From a virus (lineage: Duplodnaviria; Heunggongvirae; Uroviricota; Caudoviricetes): DNA of 26,357 bases. The position numbers and the translations under genes are program-made. The stretch spans positions 1 through 26,357 of IMG/VR virus record IMGVR_UViG_2541047815_000002; one strand, given 5' to 3'. Under the pieces are notes generated by a model. That model did no database searches. It saw nothing but the letters and a program-made list of their open reading frames with translations, and was not told the origin of the DNA. Each line of letters starts with the position of its first letter. Within the stretch, counting starts at the first letter, position 1. Shown here piece after piece: positions 2,144-11,446 of the stretch.

Positions 2144-2365
2144 ATGAGACCTAACATTTCAATCACTCTTACCACGCCTCATGTGACTATTGAACGCTAT
2201 AGCGAGCTGACAGGGCTATCCATCGATACCATCAATGACATGTTGGCTGATGGACGCCTTATCCGTCACCGTCTGCGCAAAGATAAAAAACGCGAAAAAG
2301 TGATGATCAACATAGCAGCAATGACCGTTGATGCGCTTTCAGAATGCAATCTAAACCTTAATTAG
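2144..2365 (+). CDS. apl: Apl/Cox-like small DNA-binding excisionase/transcriptional regulator
   Basis: 73-aa basic protein and first gene of the rightward early operon, divergent from cI. This is the position of apl in 186 and cox in P2. ATG at 2144 with GAGG about 10 nt upstream. Confidence 0.6.
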
Positions 2366-2397
2366 TTCGATTCTGAAATACATCAGAGGCATTGACC

Positions 2398-2907
2398 ATG
2401 TTTGATTACCAAGTTTCCAAACATCCACATTTTGATGAAGCCTGTCGTGCATTTGCACTGCGCCACAATCTGGTGCAACTGGCAGAACGTGCAGGCATGA
2501 ATGTGCAGATTCTGCGGAACAAGCTGAACCCAGCTCAGCCTCATTTATTAACCGCACCAGAAATCTGGCTGCTTACCGATCTGACTGAAGATTCAACGCT
2601 GGTAGATGGTTTTCTGGCACAGATTCATTGTCTGCCATGTGTACCGATTAATGAGGTGGCAAAAGAGAAACTGCCACATTACGTCATGAGTGCAACCGCA
2701 GAGATCGGGCGTGTTGCTGCAGGTGCGGTGTCTGGCGATGTAAAAACCTGTGCCGGTCGTCGTGATGCTATCAGCAGCATTAACTCTGTAACACGACTGA
2801 TGGCGCTGGCGGCTGTTTCATTGCAGGCCCGTTTACAGGCTAATCCTGCGATGGCGAGTGCAGTTGATACCGTGACTGGCCTCGGTGCTTCATTTGGTTT
2901 GCTGTGA
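2398..2907 (+). CDS. cII: CII-like lysogeny-establishment activator (phage 186 CII family)
   Basis: Protein [45 protein letters not shown]... closely matches my recollection of 186 CII over its full length, including the HTH segment. ATG at 2398 is preferred over the upstream TTG at 2392. Confidence 0.8.
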
Positions 2908-3948: not shown

Positions 3949-4802
3949 GCACCATCCTGAAATGGGCGGGAAATAAAACTGCCATAATGTCCGAACTAAA
4001 AAAACATCTTCCTGCTGGCCCGCGACTGGTTGAACCTTTCGCGGGTTCCTGTGCTGTGATGATGGAGACGGATTATCCCAGCTATCTGGTTGCGGATATT
4101 AATCCTGATTTAATCAACCTTTATAAAAAGGTTGCCGCTGATTGTGAATCGTTTATATCTCGCGCCAGAGTTTTATTTGAGATCGCAAACAGGGAGGTGG
4201 CTTATTACAACATAAGGCAGGAGTTTAATTACTCAACTGAAATTACTGATTTCATGAAAGCGGTATATTTCCTGTATCTCAATCGTCACGGTTACCGTGG
4301 TTTATGTCGCTATAACAAGAGCGGGCATTTCAACATTCCCTACGGTAATTATAAAAATCCGTATTTCCCTGAAAAAGAAATTCGCGCATTTGCAGAAAAG
4401 GCCCAGCGAGCAACGTTTATCTGCGCCAGCTTTGATGAAACGCTGGCGATGTTGAAGGCGGGGGATGTGGTGTATTGCGATCCGCCGTATGACGGTACGT
4501 TTTCCGGCTATCACACTGACGGCTTCACTGAAGATGACCAGTATCACCTGGCATCTGTTCTTGAACATCGGTCATCAGAAGGACATCCGGTCATTGTTTC
4601 TAACAGTGACACATCCCTGATCCGTTCGCTGTATCGCAATTTTACTCACCACTACATCAAGGCAAAACGCAGCATCGGTGTGGCAGCTGGCGAGGGTAAA
4701 TCAGCAACAGAAATCATTGCTGTTTCCGGGCCGCGCTGCTGGGTGGGATTTGATTATTCGCGTGGCGTGGATAGTTCTGCCGTGTACGGAGTACGTGCAT
4801 GA
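3945..4802 (+). CDS. dam: Dam-type DNA N6-adenine methyltransferase (orphan, no cognate nuclease seen)
   Basis: ATG at 3945 with GGAGG upstream. N-terminal SAM-binding motif (KWAGNK ... EPFAGS) and the catalytic DPPY tetrapeptide at 4479-4490. Translationally coupled to gene A (ATGA overlap at 4799-4802). Confidence 0.85.
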
Positions 4803-7213
4803 GTCATGCCGATATGAACAACTGCTGCGGCTTTAACGAAGCTGCCGCATCGTTCTCATGGAACAGCTCGAAAAAGGCCATTAACCCTTATCTGGACCCG
4901 GTGGAAGTTGCGCCGGTTTCTACGCTTTCAAACCTGATCACTCTGTACGCTGCCGATAACGAGCAGGAACAGCTGCGCCGTGAGGCGCTGAGTGATCAGG
5001 TCTGGGAGCGTTATTTCTTTAATGAATCCCGTGATCCTGTCCAGCGCGAAATGGAACAGGATAAGCTCATTAGTCGGGCAAAGCTGGCGCATGAGCAGCA
5101 GCGTTTTAATCCGGATATGGTCATTCTGGCGGACGTCAACGCCCAGCCTTCCCATATCAGCAAGCCGCTGATGCAACGTATTGAATACTTCAGCAGCCTG
5201 GGCAGGCCAAAGGCTTATTCCCGCTATTTACGTGAGACGATTAAGCCATGTCTGGAACGACTGGAGCATGTACGCGACAGTCAGCTATCTGCATCTTTTC
5301 GCTTTATGGCAAGCCATGAAGGGCTGGACGGCCTGCTGATCCTGCCTGAAATGAGTCAGGATCAGGTGAAACGCCTGTCCACCCTGGTAGCTGCGCATAT
5401 GAGTATGTGCCTTGATGCCGCTTGTGGCGATTTGTATGCCACCGATGACGTTAAGCCAGAAGAAATCCGCAATACATGGGAAAGGGTGGCAGCGGAAACC
5501 CTGCGTCTGGATGTCATCCCGCCTGCGTTTGAGCAACTCCGTCGGAAAAGAAACCGCCGTAAACCCGTGCCCTATGAACTCATTCCGGGTTCGCTGGCGC
5601 GTATGTTGTGCGCCGACTGGTGGTATCGGAAATTATGGAAGATGCGTTGCGAATGGCGGGAAGAGCAGTTGCGTGCTGTCTGCCTTGTCAGCAAAAAAGC
5701 ATCTCCCTATGTCAGCTATGAAGCCGTGTTGCATAAACGTGAGCAGCGCCGTAAGTCGCTGGAGTTTTTCCGTTCTCATGAACTGGTGAACGAAGACGGC
5801 GACACGCTGGACATGGAGGATGTGGTAAACGCCAGCAGCAGCAACCCTGCGCATCGCCGCAATGAGATGATGGCCTGTGTTAAAGGTCTGGAGCTTATCG
5901 CGGAAATGCGCGGTGACTGCGCCGTTTTCTACACCATCACCTGTCCGTCACGTTTCCATTCCACGCTAAATAACGGCAGGCCCAACCCAACCTGGACAAA
6001 TGCGACGGTAAGACAAAGCAGTGATTATCTGGTCGGCATGTTTGCTGCATTTCGTAAGGCGATGCACAAAGCCGGATTGCGGTGGTATGGCGTGCGGGTG
6101 GCTGAGCCGCATCATGACGGTACAGTTCACTGGCACCTGTTGTGTTTTATGCGCAAAAAAGACCGCCGCACCATCACTGCATTACTGCGTAAGTTTGCCA
6201 TCCGTGAAGACCGCGAGGAGCTGGGCAATAACACTGGGCCGCGCTTTAAGTCTGAGTTGATTAACCCGCGCAAAGGTACGCCAACAAGCTACATCGCGAA
6301 ATACATCAGTAAGAACATTGACGGGCGTGGTCTGGCTGGCGAGATCAGCAAGGAAACGGGGAAATCCCTGCGTGATAATGCTGAATACGTTAATGCCTGG
6401 GCGTCTCTGCATCGTGTTCAGCAATTCCGCTTCTTTGGCATTCCGGGGCGTCAGGCTTACCGTGAACTGCGATTGCTGGCTGGTCAGGCGGCAAGGCAAC
6501 AGGGGGACAAAAAAGCAGGTGCGCCGGTACTGGATAACCCGCGCCTTGATGCCATTCTGGCTGCTGCTGATGCTGGTTGTTTTGCCACCTACATCATGAA
6601 GCAGGGTGGCGTACTGGTTCCCCGCAAATATCACCTCATCAGAACTGCTTATGAAATCAACGAAGAGCCGACCGCCTATGGCGATCACGGCATTCGTATT
6701 TATGGCATCTGGTCACCTATTGCAGAGGGCAAGATCTGCACTCATGCCGTGAAGTGGAAAATGGTTCGTAAGGCCGTTGACGTTCAGGAGGCGGCAGCCG
6801 ACCAGGGCGCTTGCGCCCCTTGGACTCGTGGCAATAACTGTCCCCTTGCTGAAAATTTGTACCAACAAGGGAAAGACAAATCAGCTGATGGGGATACCAG
6901 AACGGATATCACCCGTATGGATGACAAGGAGTTGCACGATTACCTGCACAGTATGAACAAAAAAGAACGCCGGGAACTGGCTGCAAGGTTACGCCTGGTG
7001 AAACCGAAACGGCGTAGAGACTACAAACAGCGAATTACAGACCATCAACGACAGCAGCTCGTCTATGAACTGAAGTCCAGAGGATTTGATGGCAGCGAGA
7101 AAGAGGTCGATTTACTCCTTCGCGGCGGCAGTATTCCGTCAGGAGCAGGCCTGCGTATCTTCTATCGGAACCAGCGTTTGCAGGAAGATGATAAGTGGCG
7201 GGATCTGTATTAA
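4799..7213 (+). CDS. A: Rolling-circle replication initiator (P2 gpA family endonuclease)
   Basis: 804-aa protein. HUH-type motif HWH at 6128-6136 and paired active-site tyrosines YIAKY at 6290-6304, as in P2 A and phiX174 A. Lies in the expected position after the early genes. Confidence 0.9.
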
Positions 7214-7305
7214 TTACGCGGGTTAACAATTCGTGCTCTTAATAATACCAGGCATATCAGGCTGATGAACGTAAAAAAACGTTTTACATCAGTAAGATTA
7301 TTATA

Positions 7306-7325
7306 TACTGTAAATATAAACAGTG
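7306..7325. promoter_or_regulatory. LexA (SOS) box TACTGTAAATATAAACAGTG
   Basis: Near-consensus CTGT-N8-ACAG operator (consensus TACTGTATATATATACAGTA) about 40 bp upstream of the 7367 start. A TTTACA -35-like hexamer sits at 7283-7288. Confidence 0.6.
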
Positions 7326-7366
7326 GTTATGTGTACAGTATTGCTTGTGGTGTCATAGGAGGAAAA

Positions 7367-7555
7367 ATGCAGGACTATTTTTTGGAGTCTTTGAAGCTCC
7401 AGCGCATTGATTTTTTTCTTAAGCTTGTAGCGGCTAGTGAGTGTAGTGATGAAGAGAAGGGGCTGGCTCTGCAGTGGGTTTCTGAATTGACTGATGAACT
7501 CATGGCAAAAATCAGAAGCCACGAATACAACCGCTCAATGGATGTCATCAGCTGA
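7367..7555 (+). CDS. Small acidic protein downstream of LexA box (candidate Tum-like antirepressor component)
   Basis: ATG at 7367 with AGGAGG 4 nt upstream. 62 aa. Functional call is by position and the LexA box only. Confidence 0.4.
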   Translation: MQDYFLESLKLQRIDFFLKLVAASECSDEEKGLALQWVSELTDELMAKIRSHEYNRSMDVIS

Positions 7556-7565
7556 GGTGACTTTT

Positions 7566-7799
7566 ATGCGCATTGAAATAATGATCGATAAAGAGCAGAA
7601 AATTAGCCAGTCTACCCTGGACGCCCTTGAATCCGAGCTTTACCGCAATCTGCGCCCCCTGTATCCCAAAACGGTAATTCGTATCCGCAAAGGTAGCTCT
7701 AACGGTGTGGAACTGACCGGACTGCAACTGGACGAAGAAAGAAAACAAGTGATGAAAATTATGCAGAAGGTGTGGGAAGACGACAGCTGGCTGCATTAA
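7566..7799 (+). CDS. DinI-family protein
   Basis: 77-aa protein beginning MRIEIMIDKEQ..., with an acidic C-terminus typical of DinI-like proteins. GAGGTGA RBS. Follows the LexA-boxed small gene. Confidence 0.75.
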   Translation: MRIEIMIDKEQKISQSTLDALESELYRNLRPLYPKTVIRIRKGSSNGVELTGLQLDEERKQVMKIMQKVWEDDSWLH

Positions 7800-8304
7800 G
7801 AAACGTTGCTGGCGTCTGAACTTGCTTCTGGCGTCAGCAAGGTTGAACAACGAGCTGTGCGAGGCGTTAGCCATCTGATCAAAAGACATCAAATATCATA
7901 TTGTATATCGTGGTCAAACGCTGGAAACAATCATTCCCGGTCAGAGGGGCTTCTTTCAATGTCCAAAAGAGTGAGATAGAGGATACAGGATGGGAAGAGC
8001 TTATGATGATTGTTCTTGGATTGACTTGGAATATTTGATGTCCATTATCTAATGGACTTGGTCTTGATAGTTATCACGAAAGAGGAAGCCAACGTCATGT
8101 ATTTGAAGAGTATCTCTTACCTTTTGATTAATTATTGTCCAAGTTTTTCAAAAGCTTCTTATCTGGCGGTCGATACATGATTTACTGTTGGATATGGTAT
8201 TTAAAATTAATCTTTACACTGTGGTATATGCAGAATAGGATATTATCAATACAATCAAACCGTTTTCATACGGTTGTTAATATTGCAATGTTATAGGTAA
8301 TGTC

Positions 8305-9423
8305 ATGTATCTTTTCAAGTATTACCGTCCGGACTTCTTCTTCGAGAAAGCTATTCGTTATAATGAATTATATTTTTCCGCTCCTGCGCAATTGAATGAT
8401 CCTAATGATCTCAATATAGATTATCGTTTTGATAATAAATTGAAATTATGGGATATTTTATTGCGTTCTCCTTGCGATAAATCCTATGAAAATTTGAGTC
8501 ACATATTAGATTTGAGTAATTTGAAGATACATAAGGGATTGAATCGTATTTTTAGAGGAAAAAAAATAAAAAGTAGCATTGAGTCATTAGATAGCCTGTT
8601 TGACTCACACGTTGATGAGATACGTAAGATCATAAATGATGGTTTACTACCTATCAATGTGATTAATTCCGCTATTTATGGGAATATTCCTGAACCACGC
8701 CAATTTTTGGTCTCACTTTGCGAGAACAGTATCAAAGAAAGGTTGTATAGGAAAATAGTTCCTGCAGTATTCAGTGTGTCATTTTCAGCTAATGCGTTAG
8801 ATCGTATGATGTGGGCGCATTATGCTGCAGGCTTTAGTGGTTGTGTTGTGATTTATGAAACGCAGGATTTTAATATTAATGGCGTGCCACATCCTGGAAT
8901 GAAGCTAAGAGAAAATTTATTTTCATCAGATAAATTTAATTTTCCAGTTAAGCAAATAAAATATAGTAATCAGGCTAAAGAGGTTTCACTTCTAGACCCA
9001 AGCGCAAATGTTGCAGAGTTATTTTTAACTAAAAATAGATTTTGGAGATATGAAGCTGAATATCGAATGTTTATTCCAGAGGCAAATGCAGGAATAGGGA
9101 GTGAGCGGCATGTTCAAAGACGCGTAAATCGAAATATTGGACATATTTTTCATCATGATGCTAATGTTGTTAAAGGGATCATTTTTGGTCCTAGAATGTG
9201 TGAAATGAAAAAAGAAAGCATATGGAATTGTATCAAGTCAAATATGGAGAATTCAAATTCAACAATATGTTATTTTTTTGACTCTGAGTTATCAGCATCA
9301 GGAAAGATTACTATTTCAAAAGGGCAACGAGCGGAAAAAATGAAAAATTTCCCTTTGTTCAGGAACAAGTTAAGTCAGACGGAAATGGCTAAAGTTTTGA
9401 AGGAAATTGGCATTACGAACTAA
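8305..9423 (+). CDS. DUF2971-like protein (372 aa), accessory cargo gene, candidate anti-phage/abortive-infection factor
   Basis: Lies in a strongly AT-rich island (by eye) that contrasts with the phage backbone. From memory it resembles the DUF2971 pattern: N-terminal LFKYYR ... LYFSAPAQLNDPND, then MWAHYA and RYEAEYRMF. It occupies the tin/old-equivalent hotspot downstream of A. Confidence 0.6.
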   Translation: MYLFKYYRPDFFFEKAIRYNELYFSAPAQLNDPNDLNIDYRFDNKLKLWDILLRSPCDKSYENLSHILDLSNLKIHKGLNRIFRGKKIKSSIESLDSLFDSHVDEIRKIINDGLLPINVINSAIYGNIPEPRQFLVSLCENSIKERLYRKIVPAVFSVSFSANALDRMMWAHYAAGFSGCVVIYETQDFNINGVPHPGMKLRENLFSSDKFNFPVKQIKYSNQAKEVSLLDPSANVAELFLTKNRFWRYEAEYRMFIPEANAGIGSERHVQRRVNRNIGHIFHHDANVVKGIIFGPRMCEMKKESIWNCIKSNMENSNSTICYFFDSELSASGKITISKGQRAEKMKNFPLFRNKLSQTEMAKVLKEIGITN

Positions 9424-9577: not shown

Positions 9578-9679
9578 CGCGCGCTAACTCATAAATCCTA
9601 GATTATTAGTGGATTTATCTCATTGAAATGTGCACTATTCCCAGCATTGAGTTGTACCAGATGTCTTTATGGAGGGACT

Positions 9680-11446
9680 GTGGCTTTTGTAACTGATATT
9701 CGGCTTGAAGATAATGCTATTGCTGCACCTGCGACAGCACAGGTTATGGCTCAGAGGCTAGGATCTGTATTACGTAAGAGATATGAAGAATTCATCCATA
9801 AAAGAGAGTGTGCACCAGGCCAAGCAGACTATGATGTAAAAATGGCTAGCAGGGCTTTAGCTGCATTCACTATGTATCAGTTAGGATGTGTGGATGATAA
9901 GTATGCAGGGGAGTCTGTATGTGATAGTAGTGAAGATGGTGGTATAGATGGAATAGCAATCAACCATAACGAAAAAATCGTTGTTGTTGTTCAATCAAAA
10001 TTTCACCAATCGGGAAACGGCACTTGGACAAGAGCCGATTTTATGTGTTTTAAGGATGCTTGTGAGAAGCTACAAAGTGAAAGATACGAATTATTTGATT
10101 CCATATTGCAAAATAAAAGCGGGGAAATAAGTGCGGCTTTAAGTAGTTTTGAATACAAGTTCATCTTTGCGATGGCGCATACAGGTAAAAAAGGTGCTGC
10201 AGAGGAAATATTAAATGATATGCGGGAATGGCAATATCAATTAAACGCTGCAGCTTTTACACCTGAGGATGAGCCTAAAGAGAACTGGGGATTTCAGGTT
10301 CATTTAATATCCTCTGAAGATATGATGCATTGGTTACAGAATGGCTCTCGAAATCAAATTGATCTTAACAGGGTTGAAATTGAGCGTTTTGGATTTTTGA
10401 ATGAACCATATCAAGCTTTTTACGGGGCTATTAGTGGTGATCAAGTTGCAGAATGGTGGGAAGAGCATGGTGCTCGATTATTTACAAAAAACATAAGGAA
10501 TATGCTTGGTAAAACAGAAGTGAATGAGGAAATAAAAAAGACAGCTATAGATAATCCTGATATGTTTTGGTTTTATAATAATGGGATTACTGTACTGGTT
10601 AAGGAAGTTGTTCCTCATAGACGAAACGCAGCTCCTAATATAGAGAGAGGGATTTTTGATTTTCGTGATGTAAGTGTCATTAATGGTGCACAAACAGTCA
10701 GTAGTATTGGCGCATGTAAAGATGCGCTTGGTGAAAACATATATAGACTCAAAGTGCCAGCTAGATTCATTGTTATAGATGATGATACTGATAATTTAAC
10801 TGCAAATGCAATTACAAAAGCTAACAATTTCCAAAATAGAGTATTGGGAAGAGATTTTGCATCGCAGCAGGCAGATCAACATAGATTGGCAAGGGAGTTA
10901 GTGCTTGAAGGATATCAATATCAGTTACTAAGAACAGATGAAGATCATTCACAGACAAATACGAAAGTCATTGACTTGGATGAGGCGCTCAATGCACTCG
11001 CATGTTTAAGTAAAAATAATACGGTTGTATCGACACTAAAATCAAATCGCGGTAGGTTTTTTGAAAATTTTGAAGGCTCTCTATATAAAACTATTTTCAA
11101 TCCAAGATTAAGTGGTTTAAAACTTATCAATACTGTTCTACATTTTAGAGTTATAGATAAGTTGATCGGTAAAACATTACTATCAGTAGATAAAACGACC
11201 CATAGTCGCAAGCATTTAATTATTACGCATGGTAATAGATACTATGCGTCTGTACTATTGAGCAACGTTTCTGGGATACATAATAGCTCAGAAATTCTTG
11301 TTCCAGATGAAAAAAATCTTTCCGAAGAATTAAGTGCATTAATTCAACGTGCTGAAGAGTACATTGAAGATAATTACCCGAATGCCTATCCGGCAAGATT
11401 TTTTGCAAATCCAACGAAAATACAAGAGTTATACGATAATGTTTAA
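9680..11446 (+). CDS. AIPR-like (abortive infection phage resistance family) protein with putative N-terminal PD-(D/E)xK-like motif
   Basis: Long ORF in AT-rich DNA. Start is uncertain: TTG at 9623, GTG at 9680 with GGAGGG upstream, or ATG at 9746. Motifs DGGIDGI ... VVVVQSK (D...QxK, nuclease-like) and NNGIT ... INGAQT, which I associate with the AIPR family. Followed immediately by a strong terminator. Confidence 0.55.
   Translation: MAFVTDIRLEDNAIAAPATAQVMAQRLGSVLRKRYEEFIHKRECAPGQADYDVKMASRALAAFTMYQLGCVDDKYAGESVCDSSEDGGIDGIAINHNEKIVVVVQSKFHQSGNGTWTRADFMCFKDACEKLQSERYELFDSILQNKSGEISAALSSFEYKFIFAMAHTGKKGAAEEILNDMREWQYQLNAAAFTPEDEPKENWGFQVHLISSEDMMHWLQNGSRNQIDLNRVEIERFGFLNEPYQAFYGAISGDQVAEWWEEHGARLFTKNIRNMLGKTEVNEEIKKTAIDNPDMFWFYNNGITVLVKEVVPHRRNAAPNIERGIFDFRDVSVINGAQTVSSIGACKDALGENIYRLKVPARFIVIDDDTDNLTANAITKANNFQNRVLGRDFASQQADQHRLARELVLEGYQYQLLRTDEDHSQTNTKVIDLDEALNALACLSKNNTVVSTLKSNRGRFFENFEGSLYKTIFNPRLSGLKLINTVLHFRVIDKLIGKTLLSVDKTTHSRKHLIITHGNRYYASVLLSNVSGIHNSSEILVPDEKNLSEELSALIQRAEEYIEDNYPNAYPARFFANPTKIQELYDNV

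Follow-up and report, generated by a model that had tools for sequence, protein, structure and literature searches.

LexA-controlled tum operons have been described for phage 186 and its relatives. In coliphage 186 the p95-tum operon encodes a Tum protein of 146 aa, which binds and inactivates the 186-type repressor according to the summary given in PMC3121763. The DinI-like part of 186 Tum is additionally produced from internal starts, and the 186 record lists a truncated Tum, started at the residue 71 GTG, that 'modulates SOS induction'. The tum gene is split by a stop codon in Fels-2 and PsP3, with the antirepressor activity carried by the upstream PsP3 gene (Lemire 2011, PMC3121763). The PsP3 record describes tumA as 'similar to 5' end 186 tum; UV induction of prophage' and also holds a tumB, while in the Fels-2 record a similarity to 'TumB [PsP3]' is noted for the DinI gene. 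Treatment with the mutagen MX induces the Fels-2 operon STM2726-2728, and the expression of STM2727 rises 5.5- to 14.8-fold. For DuoHS, a prophage of E. coli HS, one strain lacking 'tum' (ECHS_RS04495) through an in-frame deletion and another with the lexA(Ind-) allele G85D have been studied, and neither lysed or formed virion foci after mitomycin C treatment (Ortiz de Ora et al., Nat Microbiol 2025, PMC12055606). The same logic of a LexA-controlled small antirepressor instead of repressor cleavage is followed by the Gifsy-type GfoA/GftA and N15 AntC systems, although their antirepressor and repressor families are unrelated to those of the prophage studied here. The Gifsy phages also have a dinI homologue in the antirepressor operon, but it comes first so that the gene order is reversed.

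The window analysed here is the whole stretch of 26,357 nucleotides from IMG/VR record IMGVR_UViG_2541047815_000002. From the whole window, the early region was read as that of a P2/186-like (Peduoviridae) prophage, and the tum module was located directly 3' of gpA, the position of the LexA-controlled p95-tum operon in phage 186 (Table 1). A LexA-repressed promoter after gene A and a 186-type CI are features of coliphage 186 as well as of the window. The Tum halves are fused in 186, unlike the window where a stop codon and a 10-nt gap lie between them. Scans against Rfam and for tRNA genes across the whole window gave no match. The first-pass annotation of the region had described a near-perfect LexA operator over a promoter-like region, followed by a 62-aa acidic protein and a DinI-family protein, and all of these elements were found where it had placed them. 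Its comparison with the 186 Tum arrangement was borne out by the position after gpA, the location of the box over the -10 and the homology of the two ORFs to the two halves of Tum. It had also cautioned that the two-ORF organisation may differ from the single tum gene of 186; this is so, and the difference had already been noted for Fels-2 and PsP3.

Table 1. Features of the early region and tum module, in window coordinates
Feature	Position	Strand	Basis or remark
int	1-1053	minus	
Leader hairpin AAAAAUGCUCUCUAUUGGAGGGCAUUUUUU	1054-1083	minus	3' arm holds the int Shine-Dalgarno; directly before the int ATG (1053)
Second LexA-type box, reading CACTGGTTATACATACAGTA on the int strand	1083-1102	none	In the promoter spacer 5' of int
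Promoter-like site at int	TTGACA 1106-1101, AAAAAT 1083-1078	minus	17-nt spacer, 10/12 match
63-aa ORF between cI and int	1242-1433	minus	
cI, 186-type immunity repressor, presumed TumA target	1449-2024	minus	Phage_CI_repr and Phage_CI_C
ORF in apl/cox position	2144-2365		
cII	2392-2907		
gpA, 804-aa replication endonuclease	4799-7213		
-35-like hexamer TTTACA of the putative tum promoter (186 p95 equivalent)	7283-7288	+	Aligns with the annotated p95 -35, TTCACA
LexA operator (SOS box) TACTGTAAATATAAACAGTG	7306-7325	none	First six bases are the probable -10
Shine-Dalgarno AGGAGG of tumA	7357-7362	+	4 nt before the ATG at 7367; read from the sequence
tumA, 62-aa acidic putative antirepressor	7367-7555	+	phrog_698 match, Tum N-terminal homology
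tumB, 77-aa DinI-family protein	7566-7799	+	PF06183
Stem-loop after tumB, no U-run	7802-7844	+	RNA folding; region z-score only -1.4 (weak evidence)

DuoHS was the closest of the named systems, with TumA, TumB and CI each 100% identical to those of the window, the same gene order and an identical LexA box. The two differed in a few bases between the box and the ATG and in the cargo 3' of tumB, and it was on account of this cargo that an origin of the window in E. coli HS itself was rejected. The deletion primers given in PMC12055606 were located on the window at 7347-7369 (one mismatch) and 7553-7575 (exact), and the ORF deleted in DuoHS is therefore precisely the tumA ORF (ORF62), leaving the DinI gene intact and its Shine-Dalgarno and start in place. 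In E. coli HS these two genes are ECHS_RS04495, whose 62-aa product is called a 'hypothetical protein', and the DinI-like ECHS_RS04500. The switch is already known in that induction in E. coli HS has been shown to depend on identical proteins. Added here are the profile homology between ORF62 and Tum, the invariance of the LexA half-sites and the non-cleavable type of the CI.

Gammaproteobacterial LexA operators were sought as a CTGT-N8-ACAG palindrome with an A/T-rich spacer, near the consensus TACTGTATATATATACAGTA. The box upstream of tumA matched this consensus at 17 of 20 positions, its spacer was made up of A and T throughout, and it was the only CTGT-N8-ACAG palindrome in the 26 kb window. 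It was also the sole match in the window when up to three mismatches to the 20-mer consensus were allowed, compared to 0.00 expected from 100 dinucleotide shuffles. The -35-like hexamer TTTACA is 17 nt apart from TACTGT (7306-7311), the hexamer annotated as the p95 -10 in the phage 186 record, and TATACT (7304-7309) is an alternative -10. A generic promoter scan did not call this site because TACTGT matches at only 3/6 positions and TATACT has a 15-nt spacer. The predicted core promoter is overlapped by the LexA box. As the box starts on the equivalent of the p95 -10, LexA bound there would occlude the -10 and the start region. Physical binding of LexA at this site would be expected.

Conservation of the box was followed in ten upstream regions, those of the window, DuoHS, Fels-2, ESSI-2, ev015, 186, PsP3, YenM324, ENT90 and YenM06.16-2. 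TACTGT and ACAGT held the only invariant columns among these diverged regions. A LexA box with 17 to 19 matches in 20 was located just 5' of a TumA-like ORF in every relative examined (nine loci), and the order gpA, box, tumA was likewise found in the nine relatives. An additional ACAGT half-site (TGTGTACAGT) is located at 7330-7339, some 10 nt 3' of the LexA box, has no left half and is kept in DuoHS and Fels-2; it may be the vestige of a second box.

ORF62 has twelve D/E and seven K/R residues for a net charge of about -5, which fits the acidic protein of the first-pass annotation. A longer reading of 96 aa from an ATG at 7265 was set aside as its start lies 5' of the promoter and it is not the RefSeq annotation in E. 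coli HS. The ORF belongs to phrog_698, a family of unknown function. Nothing meaningful was matched in Pfam, no NCBI-type name was assigned and a PDB sequence search gave no match, while no alignment to 186 Tum or to PsP3 TumA was obtained for ORF62 by pairwise BLASTP, the relationship to 186 Tum being visible to profiles only. The family was collected by searching 1.84 billion representative proteins exhaustively. The best 120 homologues were near-identical sequences, and the diversity came from the 50%-representative set, in which the family formed 67 clusters of small proteins that were almost all 55-75 aa long.

A family HMM was made from 29 diverse sequences that did not include any of the 186 type, and it matched residues 6-48 of 186 Tum at 35.0 bits, while the best of 10,000 shuffled decoys reached 11.6 bits. 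Alignment with hhalign placed residues 4-44 of ORF62 on residues 4-44 of Tum with a probability of 94.9% and an E value of 4.4e-8. A continuous series of intermediates (ENT90, YenM324, YenM06.16-2, ev015 and ESSI-2) was found, and a Yersinia phage 'tum protein' was matched by ORF62 and by the 186 Tum N-terminus in the same frame and register. This profile homology identifies ORF62, which is homologous to residues 4-48 of Tum, as the N-terminal domain of that protein in free-standing form. An AlphaFold (AF2) model of ORF62 was a two-helix hairpin (H2-23 and H28-61, pLDDT 87.8), and a Foldseek search with the model returned generic helical hairpins only, none at E <= 0.001.

Among the relatives, the TumA of Fels-2 (STM2728) was 97% and that of SopE-phi 90% identical to the protein of the window. 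Fels-2 of Salmonella LT2 (STM2728/STM2726.1) shares the two-ORF layout and has an identical LexA box, while its CI is only 41% identical to that of the window. PsP3 also carries the module after gpA, with a 19/20 LexA box, an upstream ORF of 60 aa and a DinI ORF of 77 aa. PsP3 TumA scored 3.6 bits against the family HMM, which is not significant, and aligned with the window protein in the expected register at a marginal hhalign probability of 9.5%; a C-x5-LAL-x-LIA pattern common to both was recognised by eye. Five related phages had the LexA box and a TumA-like ORF without a DinI ORF, which argues that TumA is the indispensable part. Many TumA-like proteins, chiefly from phages lacking a DinI gene, share a conserved C-terminal tail rich in glycine, ...NPQxGGxxSGxGxx(L/F)Q, that is absent from the TumA of the window. 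The module was present in 1,125 of 5,426 complete E. coli genomes, about a fifth, where it is annotated as 'hypothetical protein' followed by 'DinI-like family protein'. As the RefSeq name for tumA is still 'hypothetical protein', the practical value of the assignment lies in annotation, where phrog_698 would become TumA, a Tum-type antirepressor.

The second ORF of the module matched PF06183 over the entire profile (positions 1-63 of 63) at 81.3 bits and an E value of 6.6e-23, the cut-off being 24.2 bits, and the DinI structures PDB 1GHH/7YWA at 2.7e-6. It was 41% identical to residues 71-145 of 186 Tum, and the alignment began exactly at the residue 71 GTG, the internal start of the truncated 186 Tum. 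The DinI ORF is by homology the free-standing C-terminal domain of Tum. Its start is located 10 nt past the tumA stop, and its ribosome-binding site GAGGTG overlaps that stop. A weak 6-bp hairpin identified by a generic scan at 7544-7561 covers the tumB Shine-Dalgarno and is not conserved in PsP3. The stem-loop downstream of tumB, which is not a canonical terminator, is possibly a transcript-end or processing structure; PsP3 has the same loop motif, AACTTGCTT, at the corresponding position.

The CI of the window matched Phage_CI_repr at 114.5 bits and Phage_CI_C at 95.4 bits and was 33% identical to 186 CI, which also provided its closest solved structures (PDB 2FJR at 2.6e-31, and 2FKD). Judged from these matches, CI is a repressor of the 186 type and non-cleavable, and for a CI of this type the expected route to induction is an antirepressor and not self-cleavage. 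In phages whose TumA was 90-100% identical to that of the window, the CI proteins shared only 34-63% identity among themselves and with the CI of the window. Conservation among them was concentrated at residues ~30-70 of the N-terminal domain (SKSTxAxRxxRDxFPAxWxIQCxLETG), a block that takes in the presumed recognition helix, while the linker and the C-terminal oligomerisation domain diverged. This block could be a TumA-binding surface or could reflect a shared operator specificity. If it is the surface for TumA, a single TumA could act on several P2-like prophages in the same host and induce them.

The assignment of the locus to the 186/Fels-2 type of SOS module was based on the conservation of the box, the homology to Tum, the CI type and the identity with DuoHS. 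It is very likely that the operon is repressed by LexA, that DNA damage removes LexA, that TumA inactivates CI by binding and that TumB modulates RecA and the SOS response. In the lysogen, host LexA on the operator would cover the -10 and the start region and keep tumA-tumB silent. After DNA damage, active RecA would lead to the self-cleavage of LexA, the promoter would fire and both small proteins would be made. By analogy with 186 Tum, TumA would then bind the 186-type CI and take it off its operators, and with CI gone the early lytic promoter would open and lytic growth would follow. TumB most likely acts on RecA filaments, tuning the strength or duration of the SOS response, and would not itself be the trigger.

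The roles of the two proteins would be different if TumB were the real trigger and ORF62 were accessory or needed for tumB expression, the deletion phenotype then reflecting polarity or coupling. Translational coupling is plausible from the 10-nt distance, the Shine-Dalgarno overlapping the tumA stop and the hairpin over it, and the DuoHS tum deletion was reported without complementation (PMC12055606). That deletion retains the tumB Shine-Dalgarno and start, however, and the five phages with a box and a TumA-like ORF do without a DinI ORF. Antirepressor activity in PsP3 was assigned to the upstream gene (PMC3121763), and the truncated, DinI-only Tum of 186 is annotated as a modulator and not as an inducer, all of which makes a triggering role for TumB very improbable.

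An even smaller likelihood is attached to a lambda-like switch in which RecA stimulates the self-cleavage of CI and the LexA-controlled operon is an SOS moron unrelated to the switch. The faint match of the CI C-terminal region to Peptidase_S24 (16.3 bits, E 0.008) that would speak for such a switch is below the cut-off of 23.3 bits and stands against a Phage_CI_C match at 95 bits; in addition, the best structural matches are to 186 CI, and deletion of tum abolishes induction in a prophage with an identical CI (PMC12055606). Least credible of all is that the LexA-like palindrome arose by chance or is vestigial, with the operon under other control. While the -10 of the tum promoter is indeed non-canonical, a chance origin is at odds with the 0.00 matches expected and with half-sites that are invariant amid diverging surroundings, and lexA(Ind-) blocks induction in DuoHS, where the box is identical (PMC12055606); the Fels-2 operon, moreover, is mutagen-induced. 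Induction through TumA as a LexA-controlled antirepressor is thus the preferred reading, as the first-pass annotation had proposed in place of CI self-cleavage, and it agrees with the 186-type CI, the S24 score below the cut-off and the experiments on the identical DuoHS proteins.

A second LexA-type box is located about 30 nt 5' of the int ATG, within the spacer of a promoter-like site. When the pattern ACTGK-W8-MCAGT was searched with up to one mismatch, the int box and the tum box were the only matches in the window compared to 0.01 expected. Between the -10 of this site and the ATG is a leader hairpin (dG -14.5 kcal/mol, z -4.4) that ends in a U-run just before the int ATG. Related Int loci (48-100% identical) were gathered from a species-dereplicated genome collection, the viral contigs with Int having yielded only copies that were 99-100% identical. 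In 39 of the approximately 71 loci a box was present 47-54 nt 5' of the int ATG, while a control search of 226,790 nt of flanking sequence gave two matches. The loci with a box ranged across the Enterobacterales from Escherichia to Rahnella, Pantoea, Pectobacterium, Brenneria, Yersinia and Serratia. Among 31 distinct int boxes, positions 2, 13, 14, 15 and 19, which the pattern leaves free, were nearly invariant while the spacer varied, and several boxes reached 18/20. The leader folded in 29 of 32 distinct cases (mean z -4.4) with quite different stem sequences, which amounts to extensive covariation. In the loci without a box, int begins immediately behind the cI stop codon. Fels-2 has this layout, with int adjacent to cI and lacking its own LexA box.

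These patterns suggest a LexA-repressed int promoter, which would supply Int on DNA damage in parallel with derepression, and the leader hairpin may insulate int from read-through or limit its translation. A search of the accessible literature found no description of this arrangement of LexA box and hairpin at int, which is not proof of novelty. We put at about even chances the broader proposal that the SOS response is wired into the prophage at two points, the antirepressor operon and int via the box at 1083-1102, and that the nearly invariant TumA may in addition cross-induce co-resident P2-like prophages with different CI proteins. If int does have its own LexA-repressed promoter, excision and derepression would receive the damage signal in parallel, a testable addition to the 186/P2 paradigm. 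The int box and leader hairpin are the less ordinary part of the locus and are worth follow-up, while the tum switch itself adds little that is new.

Other genes of interest included the 63-aa ORF that parts int from the cI transcript. Its product begins with what resembles a signal peptide and contains several cysteines; the annotation in E. coli HS is hypothetical, and the ORF probably represents a small secreted moron. A low-GC island (31-38%; 8305-9423 and 9623-11446) separates tumB from the portal gene and is a variable cargo hotspot of P2-like prophages. In the window it encodes a DUF2971 protein, a PADLOC PDC-S31 candidate for a defence function, and an AIPR/AbiU-like abortive-infection protein, while at the same spot 3' of tumB in E. 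coli HS there are other genes, encoding two hypothetical proteins.
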